From a virus: a DNA stretch of 14,709 nt. The stretch's first letter is position 1. Each line of letters opens with the position of its first letter. Location of the stretch: UHGV virus genome UHGV-0109417; one strand, 5' to 3'. The notes under the pieces are model-generated. The model saw only the letters and a program-made list of their open reading frames with translations, did no database searches and was not told the DNA's origin. Shown here piece by piece: positions 3,319 through 13,486 of this stretch. The position numbers and the translations under genes were made by a program.

Positions 3319-3813
3319 TCATTTCCAATTGCAAGACTGTGAAATTTTTTCCACAACCTTATCAATCTCAGACAAGTCAAACTCAACTACTTGCATAGTT
3401 GATCCATAAGGTTCAAACCCAAAAATAGCTTTTTTATGCTTAGCCAAGGTCTTTATAAATTGTATTGGTTGTGGAGCAAATGCAGAATCACCGCCTTCCC
3501 CACCTCCCCAAACACTCTTGACCGGCTTTCCGCCATCTAACCGCACTGTAATTCTTGGGTTGTCCGAACCCATATAATCATTGAATGATAAATAGGCATC
3601 TGTTTTGTTATCACTACAACGCAACACCAGTGAAGTTGCACGATCAGTACCTGCTTTGTTATATGAATCTGGTGATAAATTAAGAGCCACAAAGTCAGTC
3701 TGGTCAGTCATTTTATTTATCTCAGACTTTGTTATCCACGGCCCTAACTTCTCTACACCAGCATTTGCTGTAAACGAGGCACTTATAACAAAGGCTAAAA
3801 TAAATTTTCTCAT
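3319..3813 (-). CDS. Secreted/periplasmic protein of unknown function (164 aa, Sec signal peptide, two Cys)
   Basis: N-terminus MRKFILAFVISASFTANA-GVEK is a typical signal peptide with an AXA cleavage site. AAGGAG RBS 8 nt upstream of the ATG. AT-rich. Own terminator. Confidence 0.75.
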   Translation of the reverse strand: MRKFILAFVISASFTANAGVEKLGPWITKSEINKMTDQTDFVALNLSPDSYNKAGTDRATSLVLRCSDNKTDAYLSFNDYMGSDNPRITVRLDGGKPVKSVWGGGEGGDSAFAPQPIQFIKTLAKHKKAIFGFEPYGSTMQVVEFDLSEIDKVVEKISQSCNWK

Positions 3814-6110: not shown

Positions 6111-6347
6111 ATGTGAATCTTGTTTAATTCGGTCAGGGTTAGCTGCTTGACGGAGCCATTCAGCCGTAAACTGCCCATTTGATGCGTCAGCCAAAAGCTG
6201 CGAATAGTTGGTTTTCTCTGTGTACTCAGTACGAGGCAGCGCCGCGTTCTTCACCCACTTGTGAATAGCAACGTTCGATAGGCCACACAGGCGAGCAGCA
6301 GCGGTTTGACCGCCTACAGCTTCGATTGCAAATTGCATTGGGTTCAT
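6102..6347 (-). CDS. cro: Cro-like repressor (Cro/YdaS-type HTH)
   Basis: 81-aa ORF with motif AIEAVGGQTAAARLCGLSNVAIHKW. Divergent from cI across the operator region. Confidence 0.75.
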   Translation of the reverse strand: MNPMQFAIEAVGGQTAAARLCGLSNVAIHKWVKNAALPRTEYTEKTNYSQLLADASNGQFTAEWLRQAANPDRIKQDSHAA

Positions 6348-6431
6348 AGTGTTTTCCGTTAACTATATTAACTACGAGTTAAGGTTATATCTTAACTGAC
6401 AGTTATGTCAACTCTAATTGATAATTAACGA
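6348..6431. promoter_or_regulatory. OR operator / PR-PRM divergent promoter region
   Basis: 84-bp region between divergent cro and cI. Contains the perfect inverted repeat AGTTAAG-N7-CTTAACT (6377-6397) and further TTAAC-containing half-sites. Confidence 0.7.
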
Positions 6432-7208
6432 ATGGTTAAAAAAGACGATTTAAAAGAAGAATTCTCGAAAAGACTTCGCGCTGCATTGCTTGATGCTGGC
6501 GTTGGTGGTCGTGGGCAGGCTGGTAGGATCAGAGAGGCTATGAAGTCCCAAGGAATTACTGTATCTGAGCCCGGGATCTGGAAATGGCTTAACGCATCAG
6601 CGATACCAGACCAAACCAATATCCTTGCCCTTAGCCGCTGGCTTGGGGTACGGCCTGAGTGGCTTGAATACGGAAGGAATGATCCCGAACCTGAACTGCG
6701 TAGGGAGTCATCTATCCCTCCAGAATCTGAATGGGGAACTGTTGACGCCTGGGATAAAAACACACCGCTTCCTGCTGACGAGGTTGAAGTGCCGTTTCTT
6801 AAGGATATTGAATTTGCGTGTGGCGATGGACGCGTACACAGCGAAGATCACAATGGTTTTAAGCTCAGGTTCTCAAAGGCAACCCTCCGCCGCGTTGGAG
6901 CTAACACAGATGGGTCTGGCATCCTGTGTTTCCCTGCTACTGGCGACAGCATGGAACCTGTGATACCGGATGGTACGACTGTAGCCGTCGATACGAACAA
7001 CAAACGCATAGTTGATGGGAAACTGTATGCCATTGGTCAGACAGATGGCGGGAATGGTCAACTCAAGCGCATTAAACAGCTGTATCGTAAGCCAGGTGGG
7101 AAGCTGATCATCCGCAGCTACAACAATGAGGCCTACCCTGATGAAGAAGCTGACATTGATGATGTTGAGATAATCGGCCGCCTCTTCTGGTACTCGGTAT
7201 TGCTGTAG
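6432..7208 (+). CDS. cI: CI repressor (N-terminal HTH, C-terminal S24 LexA-like autopeptidase)
   Basis: 258-aa ORF with G-D-S-M serine motif and downstream Lys (KRIK) typical of S24 peptidases. Divergent from cro. Confidence 0.9.
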   Translation: MVKKDDLKEEFSKRLRAALLDAGVGGRGQAGRIREAMKSQGITVSEPGIWKWLNASAIPDQTNILALSRWLGVRPEWLEYGRNDPEPELRRESSIPPESEWGTVDAWDKNTPLPADEVEVPFLKDIEFACGDGRVHSEDHNGFKLRFSKATLRRVGANTDGSGILCFPATGDSMEPVIPDGTTVAVDTNNKRIVDGKLYAIGQTDGGNGQLKRIKQLYRKPGGKLIIRSYNNEAYPDEEADIDDVEIIGRLFWYSVLL

Positions 7209-7254
7209 CGGTGGCCTGATGAGACGTTTTGGTGAAAGCATATAAGGACTGGTG

Positions 7255-8121
7255 ATGGAAAACACTGGCTTACACGATGTTAATTTTTCACTTAGATATG
7301 ACGGTTTGGATGCTGAAAAGCATGAGATTGAACTTTCTTCGCTCGGTGAATCGCTAAAGGGATTTTCGAAGATATTAGCTACAGCTGGAACCTTCGCATT
7401 AACCCAAAAGTACTCGCGAAGCACCTCAACTCAAGAGGTTAAAATTTACGCTACCGAAGCTAGGGCCAATTGTTTTTCTCTTGATACTATCATGAATTTT
7501 ATCAGTCAGTCTCAATTGTTCTCAGGGTCTGCGGGGGCTATACTTGGCGCATTAGTGCCTTATATCTTCGCTAAAAACTCGCAGAAGAAAGAGGAAATGA
7601 AATACCTAAAAGAAGCACTTGAGAAGGCAATTGAGGCCCTCGGAAATAAAGATAAAGATACCATCTCAGGTCTAATCTCAGTGATTGACAAGATGGCTAG
7701 TGAGTTACGCCCATCAGTTAGACAGGCAGTTTCCCCCATCGGTACCACCTGTAATAAGATAAGCGTCACACCGGGGAATGGTTTCAAGCCTGCTGTAATT
7801 GATGAGCAAGATAAAGCAGTAATAGACCAGTTGGACGACGACGAAGTTCTTGGCTTAAGGGAGTATCGAATCTTCCTTACTGAATTCGACGCTCACCGAA
7901 TGACCGCTAAAGTCATTATAGAAGGTGATGATTCAGATAAGCGCATCTCAGCACAAATAAGCGATCCATCTGCTTCAAAGGCAGACAACCCGTATCTCAT
8001 TTCACTTAGTCGTTTTCTGTCAACGGGTCTAAGTCATGAGTCAGCGGTAAAAGTAACTGCCAAAGCAGCAGTTAGAAAAGGGGCTATTAGTAAACTTTTC
8101 ATAGTTGATATTGAGCTTTAA
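7255..8121 (+). CDS. Hypothetical protein (288 aa) in the rexAB-equivalent slot downstream of cI; candidate exclusion/defence gene
   Basis: ATG at 7255 with AAGGA RBS, 47 bp after the cI stop and on the same strand. Ends at a strong intrinsic terminator. AT-richer than cI. No similarity to RexA or RexB recognised and no obvious multi-pass TM segments. Confidence 0.8.
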
Positions 8122-8124
8122 CAA

Positions 8125-8147
8125 CCGGCCACCGCGCCGGGTTTTTT
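8125..8147 (+). terminator. Intrinsic terminator ending the cI operon
   Basis: Stem CCGGC/GCCGG (8125-8129/8136-8140) with loop CACCGC, followed by GTTTTTTG. Confidence 0.75.
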
Positions 8148-8151
8148 GTGC

Positions 8152-8370
8152 CTACTTCACAGCTTTACTACCCTTCCTGACTATCTCAGCTGCATCCCGT
8201 AGCATCCCCTTATGGATCACGTTTCCTACGGCTTTGCGCTTCCCTTCCAGAAATCCCACAATGTTGTCCTTATTGATTTCAATTCCGTTATAAACCAGCT
8301 CGAACACTACGCACCCAACCTCTCCAGCCATGAAGGCCATTCGTTCATCTGCACGTTCATCTCGTTCCAT
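8152..8370 (-). CDS. Hypothetical small protein (72 aa), convergent with the 288-aa gene
   Basis: ATG at 8370 preceded by a strong SD (CAGGAGG, 6-nt spacer); translation begins MERDERADERMAFMAGEVG.... Its upstream region overlaps OL. Confidence 0.5.
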   Translation of the reverse strand: MERDERADERMAFMAGEVGCVVFELVYNGIEINKDNIVGFLEGKRKAVGNVIHKGMLRDAAEIVRKGSKAVK

Positions 8371-8412
8371 AGCTACCTCCTGATGTTTTTTGCAGCATAG
8401 CACGTACTGCAC

Positions 8413-8520
8413 AAATCCATAACAGAACTAAATTAACCAATAAATCATAACCTTAATAACCAATGGCAAAATAATTAACCAACGGTTATTGACTGAAAAT
8501 AACCATTAGTTAATAATCAG
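8413..8520. promoter_or_regulatory. OL operator / PL promoter region
   Basis: Palindrome TTAACC-AAC-GGTTAT (8475-8489) and further TAACC/GTTA half-sites like those in OR. Plus-strand promoter TTGACT (8489-8494), 16-bp spacer, TAATAA (8511-8516). Confidence 0.6.
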
Positions 8521-8582
8521 CTCATCGAAACGAAACATCGACAGCTGAGCGAAGTTAGCCAGCGGCGGACAGCAAGTCGCCT

Positions 8583-9143: not shown

Positions 9144-9365
9144 TTACTTGAACTTCCAGCCAGTTCCTTTCAGGGAATTCCTGAGCATGTCGTCGATCTG
9201 TTTTTTGACCGTGTCCGTGGCCTGATTGACAACATCGTCCTTAGTGATTTCTCGACCACAGTCAGCACAACTGACGCCGGTGAAATTTGTCTCAAAGTCA
9301 AAATCATCGGGCTGGTTGAACATCTCACTTCCGCAGTCAGGGCACACGGTCCGCATGGTTTGCAT
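9144..9365 (-). CDS. Small zinc-ribbon protein (CPDCG...CADCG), 73 aa
   Basis: ATG at 9365 preceded by AAGGA. Two CxxC pairs spaced 14 residues apart. Codon usage is better than that of the antisense plus-strand ORF 9057-9404. Confidence 0.6.
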   Translation of the reverse strand: MQTMRTVCPDCGSEMFNQPDDFDFETNFTGVSCADCGREITKDDVVNQATDTVKKQIDDMLRNSLKGTGWKFK

Positions 9366-9503
9366 GAATATATCCTTTCTACTGTTGGGGAGATTAAAGA
9401 GTAAGCGATTTCTTGCTGTTGGGGAATAGCGGGAAAGCGCGCGCCGGGCGCGGATAAATACCCCGGCACTAACTGGAATGTTTTGGGCTGGCAGACGGTT
9501 ATC

Positions 9504-9540
9504 AGCTAGTTGGTGAGGTAATGGCTCACCAAGGCGACGA
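9504..9540 (+). other. 16S rRNA helix-11-like segment forming a perfect hairpin
   Basis: AGCTAGTTGGTGAGGTAATGGCTCACCAAGGCGACGA matches, from memory, the conserved 16S region around E. coli positions 240-290, in a non-enterobacterial variant with compensatory changes. Stem TTGGTGAG/CTCACCAA with loop GTAATGG. Flanks (about 9450-9585) show weaker 16S-like similarity. Confidence 0.45.
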
Positions 9541-9623
9541 CGGCCTTCCCTGCTGCTTGAAAGCGGGGAGCCAGCACCAAAACATTTCTCCCGCATCAGC
9601 GGGTAACGACAGAGGGTAAGGGG

Positions 9624-10681: not shown

Positions 10682-11653
10682 ATGAGTGAAGCAACGGATT
10701 TAGTCGTCATAGAGAAGTCGAACGCGATGGCAGTCTTTACCAGCAAAGAGCAGCTCGACCCGCTTCTCGAGAAAATCGAGACAGAGGCCCGCAGCCTGGT
10801 ACCCGACCTGACCACTAAGAAAGGTCGCGACGCCATCGCATCAATGGCCCACAAGGTCGCCCGCTCGAAAACGTACATCGACAACGCCGGTAAAGACCTC
10901 GTTGCAGAGCTCAAGGCATTGCCCAAGCAGATCGACGAAAGCCGCCGAATTGTGCGTGAGCGACTCGACGCGCTGAAAGATGAAGTTCGCCGCCCGCTGA
11001 CCGAGTGGGAAGCCGAACAGGAGCGCATTAAAGCCGAAGAGGAAATGAATGCGTGGCATGCCGAAGCTCTGGAGATGAACGCAGAGTTCGATCGCCAACT
11101 GGCAGCACGACGCGAAGCAGACCACGAAATGGCTCTGCTGATGAATGACAAGTTTGACCGTGACCGCGAAGAGCAGCGCCGCCAGGCGGAACAGGCACAG
11201 CGTGAACGTGACGAGCGTCTGAAGCAGGAAGCGGCAGAACAAGCCCGCCGCGATGCCGAAGCGAAGCACAAAGCGGAGATTGAAGCCGCAGCACGCCGTG
11301 AAGCTGAAGAGAAAGCGCGTGCAGAGCTGGCAGAGCGCCAGCGCATCGAAACGGAGCAGCGTGCGGAACGCGAGAAGCAGGAAGCGGAAGCGCGGGCGGA
11401 ACGGGAAAAAGCCGCGGCAGTGGAAACTGAGCGCCTCAAGGCAAAACAGGCAGAAGAAGCCCGCCTGGCTGAAGAGAAGCGCATCGCCGACGAACAGGCT
11501 AAGCGCGAAGCTGACGTGAAGCACCGCAAGACGGTCGGCACCAACATCGTTAACGCGCTCACCAGCCACACCAGCTTAACTCGCGAACAGGCTATCGAAG
11601 TGCTCACCGCTCTGAAAGATGACCTGATCCCCTGCGCGAAAATTCATTACTGA
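10682..11653 (+). CDS. Hypothetical 323-aa protein with a long E/R/A/K/Q-rich charged helical central region
   Basis: Long ORF with ATG at 10682 directly upstream of gam-like/bet/exo. Central ~160 aa are low-complexity charged heptad-like repeats; the N- and C-terminal ~80 aa are ordinary. Confidence 0.8.
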   Translation: MSEATDLVVIEKSNAMAVFTSKEQLDPLLEKIETEARSLVPDLTTKKGRDAIASMAHKVARSKTYIDNAGKDLVAELKALPKQIDESRRIVRERLDALKDEVRRPLTEWEAEQERIKAEEEMNAWHAEALEMNAEFDRQLAARREADHEMALLMNDKFDRDREEQRRQAEQAQRERDERLKQEAAEQARRDAEAKHKAEIEAAARREAEEKARAELAERQRIETEQRAEREKQEAEARAEREKAAAVETERLKAKQAEEARLAEEKRIADEQAKREADVKHRKTVGTNIVNALTSHTSLTREQAIEVLTALKDDLIPCAKIHY

Positions 11654-11660
11654 GGCAACC

Positions 11661-11945
11661 ATGAACGCATACCTCACTTACGACCGCATCGAAGATCGGC
11701 GCTGGGTTGAGCAACAGCTCACCGACGAGAAAGAGAAGTGGATCAATGACCGGGCGCAGAAAATCATCGACATGATGCCAAAAGAACCGTCCGGCCTCTT
11801 CCACTTCACTGTCCCGATTGACTCCAGCCCATACGAAGGACTTCGCAGCGATGACGCTGGAAAGGCCTACAACGATTTCATTTCGGCAGTTGCTTACGCC
11901 CAGGCGGAATACGACTGGGAACACCGTACCGGCTGCCCGTTTTAA
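11661..11945 (+). CDS. gam: Gam-like protein (putative RecBCD inhibitor)
   Basis: 94-aa ORF MNAYLTYDRIEDRRW...EKEKW... resembles the start of lambda GamS (MNAYYIQDRLEAQSW...EEKEA...). Sits immediately upstream of the bet/exo pair. Confidence 0.6.
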   Translation: MNAYLTYDRIEDRRWVEQQLTDEKEKWINDRAQKIIDMMPKEPSGLFHFTVPIDSSPYEGLRSDDAGKAYNDFISAVAYAQAEYDWEHRTGCPF

Positions 11946-11963
11946 TTTTTGAGGGGATTAACG

Positions 11964-12809
11964 ATGGCAAACGAATTAACAATCACAGCGACGTCGCTTC
12001 AGGAGATAGGCGTCGACGTCTCCACCTGGAGCGCGCTGAAGAACAGCATCTACCCTGGCGCCAAAGACGAATCGGTAATGATGGCGCTTGACTACTGCCG
12101 AGCCCGCCAGCTGGATCCGTTGCTCAAACCTGTCCACCTCGTTCCGATGTACGTCAAAGACTCGAAAACAGGTAAAGGCGACTGGCGAGACGTGGTCATG
12201 CCGGGCATCGGGCTTTACCGCATTCAGGCAGACCGTTCCGGCGATTATGCCGGGGCTCGGGAGCCTGAGTTCGGGCCCGACGTAACTCAGACGCTAACTG
12301 GCGTCGAGGTGACCTTCCCTCAGTGGTGCAAATACACCGTCTACAAGCGCATGCCCAGCGGCGAGATCGTCGAGTTCAGCGCCAAAGAATACTGGATTGA
12401 AAACTACGCCACCGGCGGCCGCGACACCACGGCGCCGAATGCAATGTGGAAAAAACGCCCATACGGCCAACTGGCGAAATGCGCAGAAGCCCAGGCATTA
12501 CGTAAGGCATGGCCTGAGATTGGACAGCAGCCTACCGCTGAAGAAATGGAAGGCAAATCGCTGGACGTTGATATTCGTGACGTCACCCCGCGCAGCACCA
12601 CAGAAGCGCTTCCACCAGCAGCAAGCGAAGAAACGCTCCAGGCGATAACCGATCTCTTAACGACCCTGGATAAAGACTGGGAGAAAGACTTCCTCCCTGT
12701 GTGCAGCGACATCTTCAAGCGGCCAATTCTTGAGGCGTCAGACCTCACTGAAGAAGAGGCACAGAAAGGGTTCAACTTCCTTCAGAAAAAAGCTAAGGCG
12801 GCAGCATGA
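11964..12809 (+). CDS. Single-strand annealing recombinase with lambda Bet-type C-terminal tail
   Basis: ATG at 11964 with GAGGGG RBS; the track start 11949 is TTG. C-terminal ...[43 protein letters not shown]...[10 protein letters not shown] parallels the lambda Bet C-terminus; the N-terminal core is divergent. Translationally coupled to exo. Confidence 0.8.
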
Positions 12810-13486
12810 CACCCGAAATTATCCTGTCCAGGACCGGTATTGACGTAACTACTATCCAACAGGGCGATGAGGCGTGGCACCGGCTGCGCCTCGGCGTTAT
12901 CACAGCCTCCGAAGTGCATAACGTCATAGCCAAGCCAAGATCGGGGAAGAAGTGGACAGACATGAAAATGTCCTACTTTCACACCTTGCTCGCCGAGGTA
13001 TGCACAGGCGTGGCGCCAGAGGTTAACGCCAAGGCGCTGGCCTGGGGCAAGCAGTACGAGGAAGACGCCCGCACCCTCTTCGAGTTCACCACGGATGTGA
13101 AAGTCACGGAGTCTCCGATCCTGTTCCGTGACGAGAGCATGCGCACCGCATGCTCCCCTGACGGCCTGTGCAGTAACGGGTTCGGTCTTGAGCTTAAATG
13201 CCCGTTCACCTCCCGCGACTTCATGAAATTCCGCCTTGGCGGTTTCGAAGCCATCAAGTCTGCGTATATGGCCCAGGTGCAGTACAGCATGTGGGTGACC
13301 GGGAAAGAAGCCTGGTTCTTTGCCAACTACGACCCACGAATGAAGCGAGAAGGCATTCACCATGTCGTTGTTGAACGGGATCCGCAGTACATGACCGATT
13401 TCAACGAAATGGTGCCGGAGTTCATCGAGAAGATGGACGAGGCGCTGGCGGAGATCGGATTCACGTTCGGGGAGCAGTGGAAATGA
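12806..13486 (+). CDS. exo: Lambda-type 5'-3' exonuclease (Exo/RedA)
   Basis: 226-aa [53 protein letters not shown]... is near-identical to lambda Exo along its full length from memory. Confidence 0.93.

Follow-up and report, generated by a model that had tools for sequence, protein, structure and literature searches.

The 288-aa gene that directly follows the cI-type repressor in virus genome UHGV-0109417 is a member of the family of phage φ80 gene 40A, a two-domain family whose members recur immediately downstream of dissimilar prophage repressors. The slot in which it resides, between cI and OL, appears from the comparison of related prophages to be a site at which cargo genes are exchanged. 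By position and presumed expression the gene is, by analogy, like rexAB and bstA, yet it falls in neither of these families. A repressor-linked cargo gene is in itself a familiar kind of gene, and this one is already catalogued, but its protein is unrelated to the characterised examples. As to what the protein does, we tentatively favor, at a little short of an even chance, phage exclusion by a single protein that would be expressed in the lysogen, with an OB fold for recognition and a site of action at the inner membrane. The features on which these statements rest are collected in Table 1, with coordinates that refer to the whole stretch of 14,709 nucleotides that was analyzed (the window).

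Table 1. Features of the immunity region and of the 288-aa gene, in window coordinates.
Feature	Position	Strand	Basis
OR operator repeats, ATAATTAACGAATGGTTA and related sequences, common to OL	6366..6438		Repeat search
PRM-like promoter, CTGACA-18-GATAAT, overlapping the OR operators	6396..6425	+	Predicted
cI-type repressor, 258 aa, Peptidase_S24 C-terminal domain	6432..7208	+	Pfam; PHROG 4 'transcriptional repressor'
Mosaic block, 99.1% DNA identity to phage φ80	7210..8226		DNA search with window 6300-8550
Shine-Dalgarno sequence, AAGGA	7244..7248	+	Read directly, 6 nt ahead of ATG 7255
288-aa gene, φ80 gene 40A family (DUF7946+DUF7947, PHROG 5147)	7255..8121	+	ORF list, Pfam, PHROG, DNA match
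DUF7946 region, aa 11-191	7285..7827	+	Pfam, alignments, model
Uniformly hydrophobic segment, aa 88-106, putative membrane anchor or insertion helix	7516..7572	+	Hydropathy, alignment, model
DUF7947, aa 201-286, predicted OB-fold β-barrel	7855..8112	+	Pfam, model, fold search, conservation
Intrinsic-terminator-like hairpin and T-run, predicted to close the cI-cargo transcript	8125..8150	+	Predicted
Convergent 72-codon ORF, PHROG 3975, OL flank	8152..8370	-	ORF list, PHROG, locus comparison
OL operators, inverted pair, sequence as at OR	8471..8519		Repeat search
PL-like promoter, TTGACT-17-AATAAT, overlapped by OL operator copies	8489..8517	+	Predicted

The six-frame list contains a 289-codon ORF at 7252-8121 (+), right behind the 258-aa ORF at 6432-7208 (+). 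The ATG at 7255 is its likely start, because an AAGGA motif lies 6 nt upstream, because φ80 annotates the identical 867-nt CDS, and because the first methionine of the homologs aligns with this position. That a genuine gene is present here, and not an ORF by chance, is argued by its conservation, since an HMM search of 1.84 billion representatives matched 639 clusters at 50% identity (E ≤ 0.001), and among the full-length matches listed the lengths are mostly 270-300 aa. The stop codon of cI (TAG) occupies 7206-7208, and the gap of 46 nt that separates it from the cargo gene contains no terminator-like site. The GC content is 0.43-0.45 over the cargo gene as against 0.51-0.52 over cI. The original prediction, which had placed the gene on the cI strand shortly after the cI stop, with a ribosome binding site of its own and an AT-richer composition than cI, is confirmed on all three counts.

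The operator sequence of 18-20 nt, ATAATTAAC(G/C)AA(T/C)GGTTA, occurs in OR at 6419-6438, again at 8471-8490, and in inverted orientation at 8498-8519. Ahead of cI and the cargo gene, the PRM-like site is the only promoter-like site on their strand. The cargo gene is placed for the cI transcripts from PRM and PRE to run into it, while PL starts downstream. At the other end, 3 nt past the cargo stop, lies the hairpin CCGGC-CACCGC-GCCGG (8125-8140), followed by GTTTTTTGTG. The architecture of a rex slot, as it had been proposed for this gene, is indeed present, with cargo on the same strand as cI, no terminator between the two, and a terminator that would shield the gene from PL. Two details of that proposal need correction. 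The terminator, described as strong, has the typical shape, but with five GC pairs and a local fold z-score of only -0.7 it is unremarkable in strength. OL and PL do not follow directly past it, as had been stated, since the 72-codon minus-strand ORF (8152-8370) and about 350 bp intervene. This small ORF and the 288-aa gene converge on one hairpin. Its product is listed as WP_000362427.1 in DH10B and CX21 and is related to HK225_042; the φ80 record leaves the ORF unannotated. By locus comparison it is part of the OL flank rather than of the cargo, because it is kept beside OL under other cargo and is absent at distant loci. A 14-nt inverted repeat, 86% complementary (GCGGTGGCC / GGCCACCGC core), was also seen at 7208-7221 and 8122-8135, one arm at the cI stop and the other within the terminator. 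It brackets the cargo gene exactly, but is probably a product of chance, as the 2.2-kb region contains 20 pairs like it.

The gene had been regarded as unrecognised, a view that cannot be kept in light of matches in Pfam, PHROG, the φ80 record and RefSeq. Pfam places DUF7946 (aa 11-191, E 4e-62, 210 bits) ahead of DUF7947 (aa 201-286, E 1e-20, 73.8 bits), both with a gathering cutoff of 27, and PHROG 5147 matches over its full length (E 2e-156, 1-287 of 287). The two domains characterize the family as a whole: in a deep alignment of 101 members, DUF7946 is found in every one, DUF7947 in all but one (100/101), and no other domain occurs. The φ80 counterpart is PHI80_46 of record JX871397 (99.1% DNA identity), with the product name 'protein 40A (acetate kinase superfamily domain)'; in the older entry X13065 it is divided into 40A and 40B. 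The order of genes in φ80 is cI, 40A, OL/PL and N. In the libraries and literature searched, neither the gene nor any of its relatives has an assigned function, and literature searches for DUF7946, DUF7947, PF25678, PDC-S42, PHI80_46, WP_000432054 or phi80 40A found nothing.

Judging by DNA comparison, the window is not φ80, and the cargo gene appears to be a mosaic module that has moved between immunity regions, since the cI upstream is HK225-like and identity to φ80 begins only 2 nt past its stop codon. The window cI is about 90% identical to the HK225 repressor at the DNA level and differs from φ80 cI, and the φ80-like block ends within the small minus-strand ORF. The horizontal acquisition that the original prediction had read from base composition is borne out by these boundaries. 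The 40A genes of φ80 (Lula) and of DH10B/DH5α match the window copy with 99.1% and 100% DNA identity, respectively, and lie in the same place, between cI and OL/PL, with a common terminator and small ORF beside it, but the window copy stands behind an HK225-like repressor with a gap of 46 nt, whereas the gap in φ80 is 136 nt.

Among complete E. coli genomes, 62 contain the gene with 100% identity; the majority of these belong to DH5α, DH10B, XL10-Gold and their derivatives, which carry the defective φ80dlacZΔM15 prophage. The copy of DH10B and DH5α is WP_000432054.1, which RefSeq names 'hypothetical protein' or 'DUF7946 domain-containing protein', and in DH10B it sits behind an intact φ80 cI. 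The defective prophage of this strain retains 62% of φ80, including the cargo region (PMC11148124).

The content of the slot varies among close relatives. Sibling E. coli prophages with the cI allele of the window and the small OL-side ORF hold other cargo, namely a 194-aa protein and a YafO-family toxin in CX21 (L016 1740-2734), two small hypothetical proteins in 88COLEC (L017 1982-2759), and genes similar to HK97 gp48/gp49 in HK225 (L003 3406-4352). No PADLOC model matched the alternative cargo of these three prophages. The repressor in front of the cargo varies as well. A Klebsiella homolog with 62% identity lies directly behind a co-oriented 131-aa CI that is not of the S24 type, and homologs from Vitreoscilla, a betaproteobacterium (48% identity), and from metagenomic lambdoids (50%) likewise lie directly behind a co-oriented repressor. 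In all of these cases the repressor faces a Cro-like gene.

A scan of IMG/VR extends this picture. The nearest upstream ORF on the same strand was taken at each of 80 viral loci, and the resulting 51 distinct proteins were grouped by single linkage at ≥40% identity into 15 clusters, with Pfam run on one representative per cluster. Peptidase_S24 and/or HTH_3/Phage_CI_repr was present in 8 clusters, and a CI-type repressor stands directly upstream on the same strand at 73 of the 80 loci. As many loci are closely related Klebsiella prophages, independence is better judged from the 8 repressor clusters. The recurrence of homologs beside repressors, which had been named as a way to check the original prediction, is therefore strongly positive.

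Some family members reside elsewhere. Two homologs with 53% identity (L083 3363-4316 and L084 1177-2004) do not follow a repressor but are flanked by an Ant-like antirepressor, with the portal gene on one side and the major head gene on the other, in a setting that looks like a moron island of the structural module and is another lysogeny-control island. A few distant homologs belong to other mobile elements or to ordinary chromosomal regions, for example by SOD, MazG-like and glyoxalase genes. In the prophage of Vitreoscilla sp. C1, a 537-aa SIR2_2 protein is encoded about 800 nt downstream of the gp40A homolog (L008 7661-9274); it matches the PADLOC candidate PDC-S25 (E 2e-142) and the SIR2 region of ThsA. 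The arrangement of the two Vitreoscilla genes suggests a two-gene cargo of a single slot.

The architecture of the protein was modeled with AlphaFold2 from a 40-sequence alignment (mean pLDDT 78.9). The N-terminal region is acidic and carries the family motif RYDGxDAxxHxIxL. From this 14-residue motif, the DUF7946 region proceeds through a strand and helix, a disordered loop, a hydrophobic helix and amphipathic helices to a P161-I-G163 motif. The predicted elements are a strand (9-16), a helix (27-50), a poorly predicted loop (51-74), a second strand (75-80), and helices at 87-108, 112-128, 134-150 and 152-158, followed by a β-rich C-terminal domain. The hydrophobic segment within the helix at 87-108 precedes the sequence KNSQKK. 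Its KD19 value of 1.67 is borderline (the usual threshold is 1.6) and ranges from 1.2 to 2.2 across 40 homologs; its hydrophobic moment is 0.04 and its mean Eisenberg hydrophobicity 0.46, again borderline, while the neighboring helices are amphipathic. In nearly all of the 40 homologs the segment is hydrophobic despite a varied sequence, ends in Tyr or Trp, with a stretch rich in Lys and Arg behind it. Hydrophobicity with trailing charge is the signature of a membrane anchor, here a putative one given the borderline hydropathy, and would leave the 180 residues C-terminal to it in the cytoplasm. With this N-out topology, an N-terminus of 87 residues would have to be exported although it has no signal peptide, which would be unusual. 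It is equally possible that the protein is a soluble bundle that hides the hydrophobic helix until it is triggered.

In the predicted model, the C-terminal domain is a five-stranded barrel with the order β1-β2-β3-α-β4-β5, which qualifies as an OB fold. A fold search, also proposed with the original prediction, gave OB-fold matches for this domain that are individually weak (Foldseek E >0.01), and the full-length matches it returned were only to uncharacterised viral proteins (BFVD). The PDB sequence-profile search yielded only compositional helical matches (E ≥ 0.012). Residues G17, S33, G36, P161, G163, D237, P238, Y247, K270 and I283 are near-invariant in the 101-member alignment, and the 40-sequence alignment shows no variation at D16, D19, H23 and C73. 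In the larger alignment, position 73 (7471-7473) is either Cys or Ser (59 and 41, respectively), His is found at position 23 (7321-7323) in 86%, and an acidic residue, D or E, at position 16 in 86%. The alternation of Cys and Ser, together with a conserved His and acid, is suggestive of a candidate nucleophile site. We nevertheless do not call the protein a catalytic-triad enzyme, as the N-terminal region is too small and of low confidence (pLDDT 52-64 for residues 51-90). No catalytic domain was recognised in the protein, in line with the earlier statement that no catalytic motif could be recognised.

Among characterised systems, λ rexA-rexB shares the slot between cI and OL, co-transcription with cI and a terminator ahead of OL, and the logic proposed below, a cytoplasmic sensor with a membrane-acting part, would be shared too. 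However, RexAB consists of two proteins, of which RexB is a multi-pass membrane protein, whereas the slot here holds a single gene with one hydrophobic segment. Homology was looked for and rejected: hhalign of the family profile gave 0.4% for RexA and 0.8% for RexB, and no Rex family appeared in the Pfam and PADLOC scans. The earlier claim that the protein resembles neither RexA nor RexB agrees with these probabilities, both of which are below 1%. BstA of the Salmonella prophage BTP1, a single protein of about 300 aa, has its gene directly behind the repressor, with a terminator of its own; it is highly expressed in lysogens, acts by abortive infection and is reported to gather where phage DNA replicates (PMC8585504). 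The cargo gene is similar in being a single gene of comparable size directly downstream of a prophage repressor, with its own terminator, but its product carries an OB fold and a putative membrane helix, in contrast to BstA with its reported localisation at replication sites. BstA, Sie and Rex models gave no match in the PADLOC and Pfam scans, and Pfam yielded only DUF7946 and DUF7947.

The one PADLOC entry with detectable kinship is PDC-S42, which is of similar total length (about 300 aa) and matches as a distant homolog of the N-terminal 130 residues or so (profile positions 4-130 of 302, E 1e-5, 23 bits), with the C-terminal half unaligned. PDC-S42 also matches 23 of the 101 family members, the best at 3e-8. 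The partial alignment of the cargo protein indicates a distant relative and not a member. The 'PDC' entries of PADLOC, PDC-S42 included, are computational candidates. NCBIfam LAPAL_fam matches aa 11-188 at E 1e-5, but with 24.8 bits against a cutoff of 60, it points to distant N-terminal kinship only. P22 SieA, HK97 gp15 and T4 Imm are comparable as membrane proteins, encoded by prophages or phages, that keep other phages out. They differ from the cargo protein in that they have no sequence match to it, and none of them is known to have a large cytoplasmic OB-fold domain like the one predicted here.

Together, these observations suggest a model in which the gene is transcribed with cI from PRM (and PRE), so that its product would be present in the lysogen and would not come from PL in lytic growth. 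The cargo would accordingly serve the lysogen and not lytic growth, by analogy with λ cI-rexA-rexB and BTP1 cI-bstA. Its slot and its co-transcription with cI are well supported; that it is expressed in lysogens we infer from the same two operons. The OB-fold end would recognise a component of the infecting phage, either nucleic acid or protein, and the hydrophobic and amphipathic helical module would act on the inner membrane to abort the infection or to block entry. An exclusion or abortive function at the inner membrane is suggested by the putative membrane helix, the amphipathic helices and the OB fold, taken together with the linkage to repressors and the toxin cargo that this hotspot holds in other prophages. 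Membrane association, a sensor role of the OB fold and anti-phage activity itself are likewise inferred. Indirect support for a defence role comes from the slot itself, from the distant kinship to PDC-S42 and from the SIR2 protein that shares the slot in Vitreoscilla.

Phage phenotypes bear on the model in two ways. Lysogens of φ80/Lula, unlike λ lysogens, fail to plate T4 and cut the yield of P1 about tenfold, an effect for which no gene was named (PMC2885432), and no follow-up on the T4 phenotype was found in the literature searched. DH10B has been used as a plaque lawn for T4, T5, T7, λ, N4, EdH4, MM02 and SUSP1 (PMC9712115). Because DH10B carries a 100% identical gene and yet plates these phages, the gene at its native level in DH10B does not block them, and it is probably insufficient to account for the T4 phenotype of lysogens with a full φ80. 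It may act on other phages, only together with some other function of φ80 or only under certain conditions, or it may have no part in defence. We have also considered a bolder version, in which gp40A is a counterpart of RexAB in one polypeptide, with an OB-fold sensor fused to a membrane-inserting helical module, and accounts for the interference of φ80 with T4 and P1. The buried hydrophobic helix would then enter the inner membrane upon binding of a phage component and abort the infection, and the copy in DH5α and DH10B would be inactive for want of a φ80 factor or because of assay conditions. We regard this version as a speculative one and unlikely to be correct.

The main competitor of exclusion is that the protein is not directed against phages, but is an accessory protein of the lysogen, for example in the tuning of lysogeny or induction, in membrane physiology or in stress tolerance. 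We judge this rather unlikely, but a serious contender. It would be in keeping with the plating of standard coliphages on DH10B and DH5α, which carry the identical gene, with the absence of any family member from the experimentally validated defence set, the sole PADLOC match being to a 'candidate' model, and with the homologs in ordinary chromosomal neighborhoods by SOD, MazG-like and glyoxalase genes. Against it, φ80 lysogens do interfere with phages, and the tight and repeated linkage to unrelated repressors, with toxin-type cargo in sibling prophages, is typical of exclusion genes and morons. A different form of anti-phage action would be superinfection exclusion at the envelope, in which a bitopic inner-membrane protein blocks genome entry, as SieA, gp15 and Imm do, without killing the infected cell. 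The single conserved hydrophobic helix with aromatic and then basic residues at its C-terminal end, the predicted expression in lysogens, and the homolog of L083/L084 in a moron island by an Ant-like antirepressor among structural genes, the kind of place in which P22 sieA lies, all speak for it. The positive-inside rule, though, puts about 180 aa, including the OB fold, in the cytoplasm, which is beyond the needs of a simple blocker, and neither a PADLOC defence model (beyond the candidate PDC-S42) nor a Pfam family outside the two DUFs was matched. We consider a pure entry block distinctly improbable.

Two further explanations fare much worse. The 288-aa gene and the convergent 72-codon ORF at 8152-8370 (-) could form a pair similar to toxin and antitoxin, given that both converge on one hairpin and co-occur in φ80/DH10B, the window and Klebsiella, and that a YafO toxin fills the same slot elsewhere. 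But the small ORF stays by OL under different cargo (CX21, 88COLEC and HK225) and does not follow the homologs of Vitreoscilla and of loci L012 and L013. As it tracks the OL flank and is missing from distant loci, we rejected the pairing, which is very unlikely. Still less can be said for an enzyme of the acetate-kinase (ASKHA) superfamily or a structural protein of the virion, which we think extremely unlikely. The former goes back to the product label in the φ80 GenBank record ('protein 40A (acetate kinase superfamily domain)'), for which Pfam, PDB sequence-profile and fold searches gave no support, and the latter to the name of the weak NCBIfam LAPAL_fam match over aa 11-188 (E 1e-5). Exclusion by a single lysogen-expressed protein remains the reading that we tentatively prefer.

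The cargo of the cI-to-OL slot of lambdoid prophages, which also houses rexAB and bstA, is made in every lysogenic cell. The family described here is a widespread type of such cargo, with hundreds of clusters in Enterobacterales and beyond and at least 8 unrelated types of repressor in front of it. Cloning strains such as DH5α, DH10B and their relatives, in which experiments on phages and phage defence are commonly done, also have the gene in an intact and presumably expressed form. If it excludes phages, it would represent a new single-gene type of defence, supply a gene for the orphan phenotype of φ80, and be a hidden variable in cloning strains. If it were a RexAB in one polypeptide, it would found a defence family that comprises more than 600 clusters and accompanies phage repressors. 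Even if it excludes nothing, it would still be a conserved protein of prophage biology with predicted expression in lysogens.

The remainder of the window offers some minor observations. In the left arm, at 10682-13486 (+), the sizes and order of the ORFs (323, 94, 286 and 226 aa) fit the agt(mog)-gamL-recT-exo block of φ80, so that both sides of the non-φ80 immunity core resemble φ80. Within the PL-transcribed region, a 150-aa ORF at 9144-9596 (-) has paired CxxC motifs, and its relatives are annotated as 'ECs_2282 family putative zinc-binding protein'. Finally, a 164-aa ORF at 3319-3813 (-), between the replication genes and the nin/Q-side genes, begins with an N-terminus similar to a signal peptide (MRKFILAFVISASFTANAG) and may encode another, secreted moron product.
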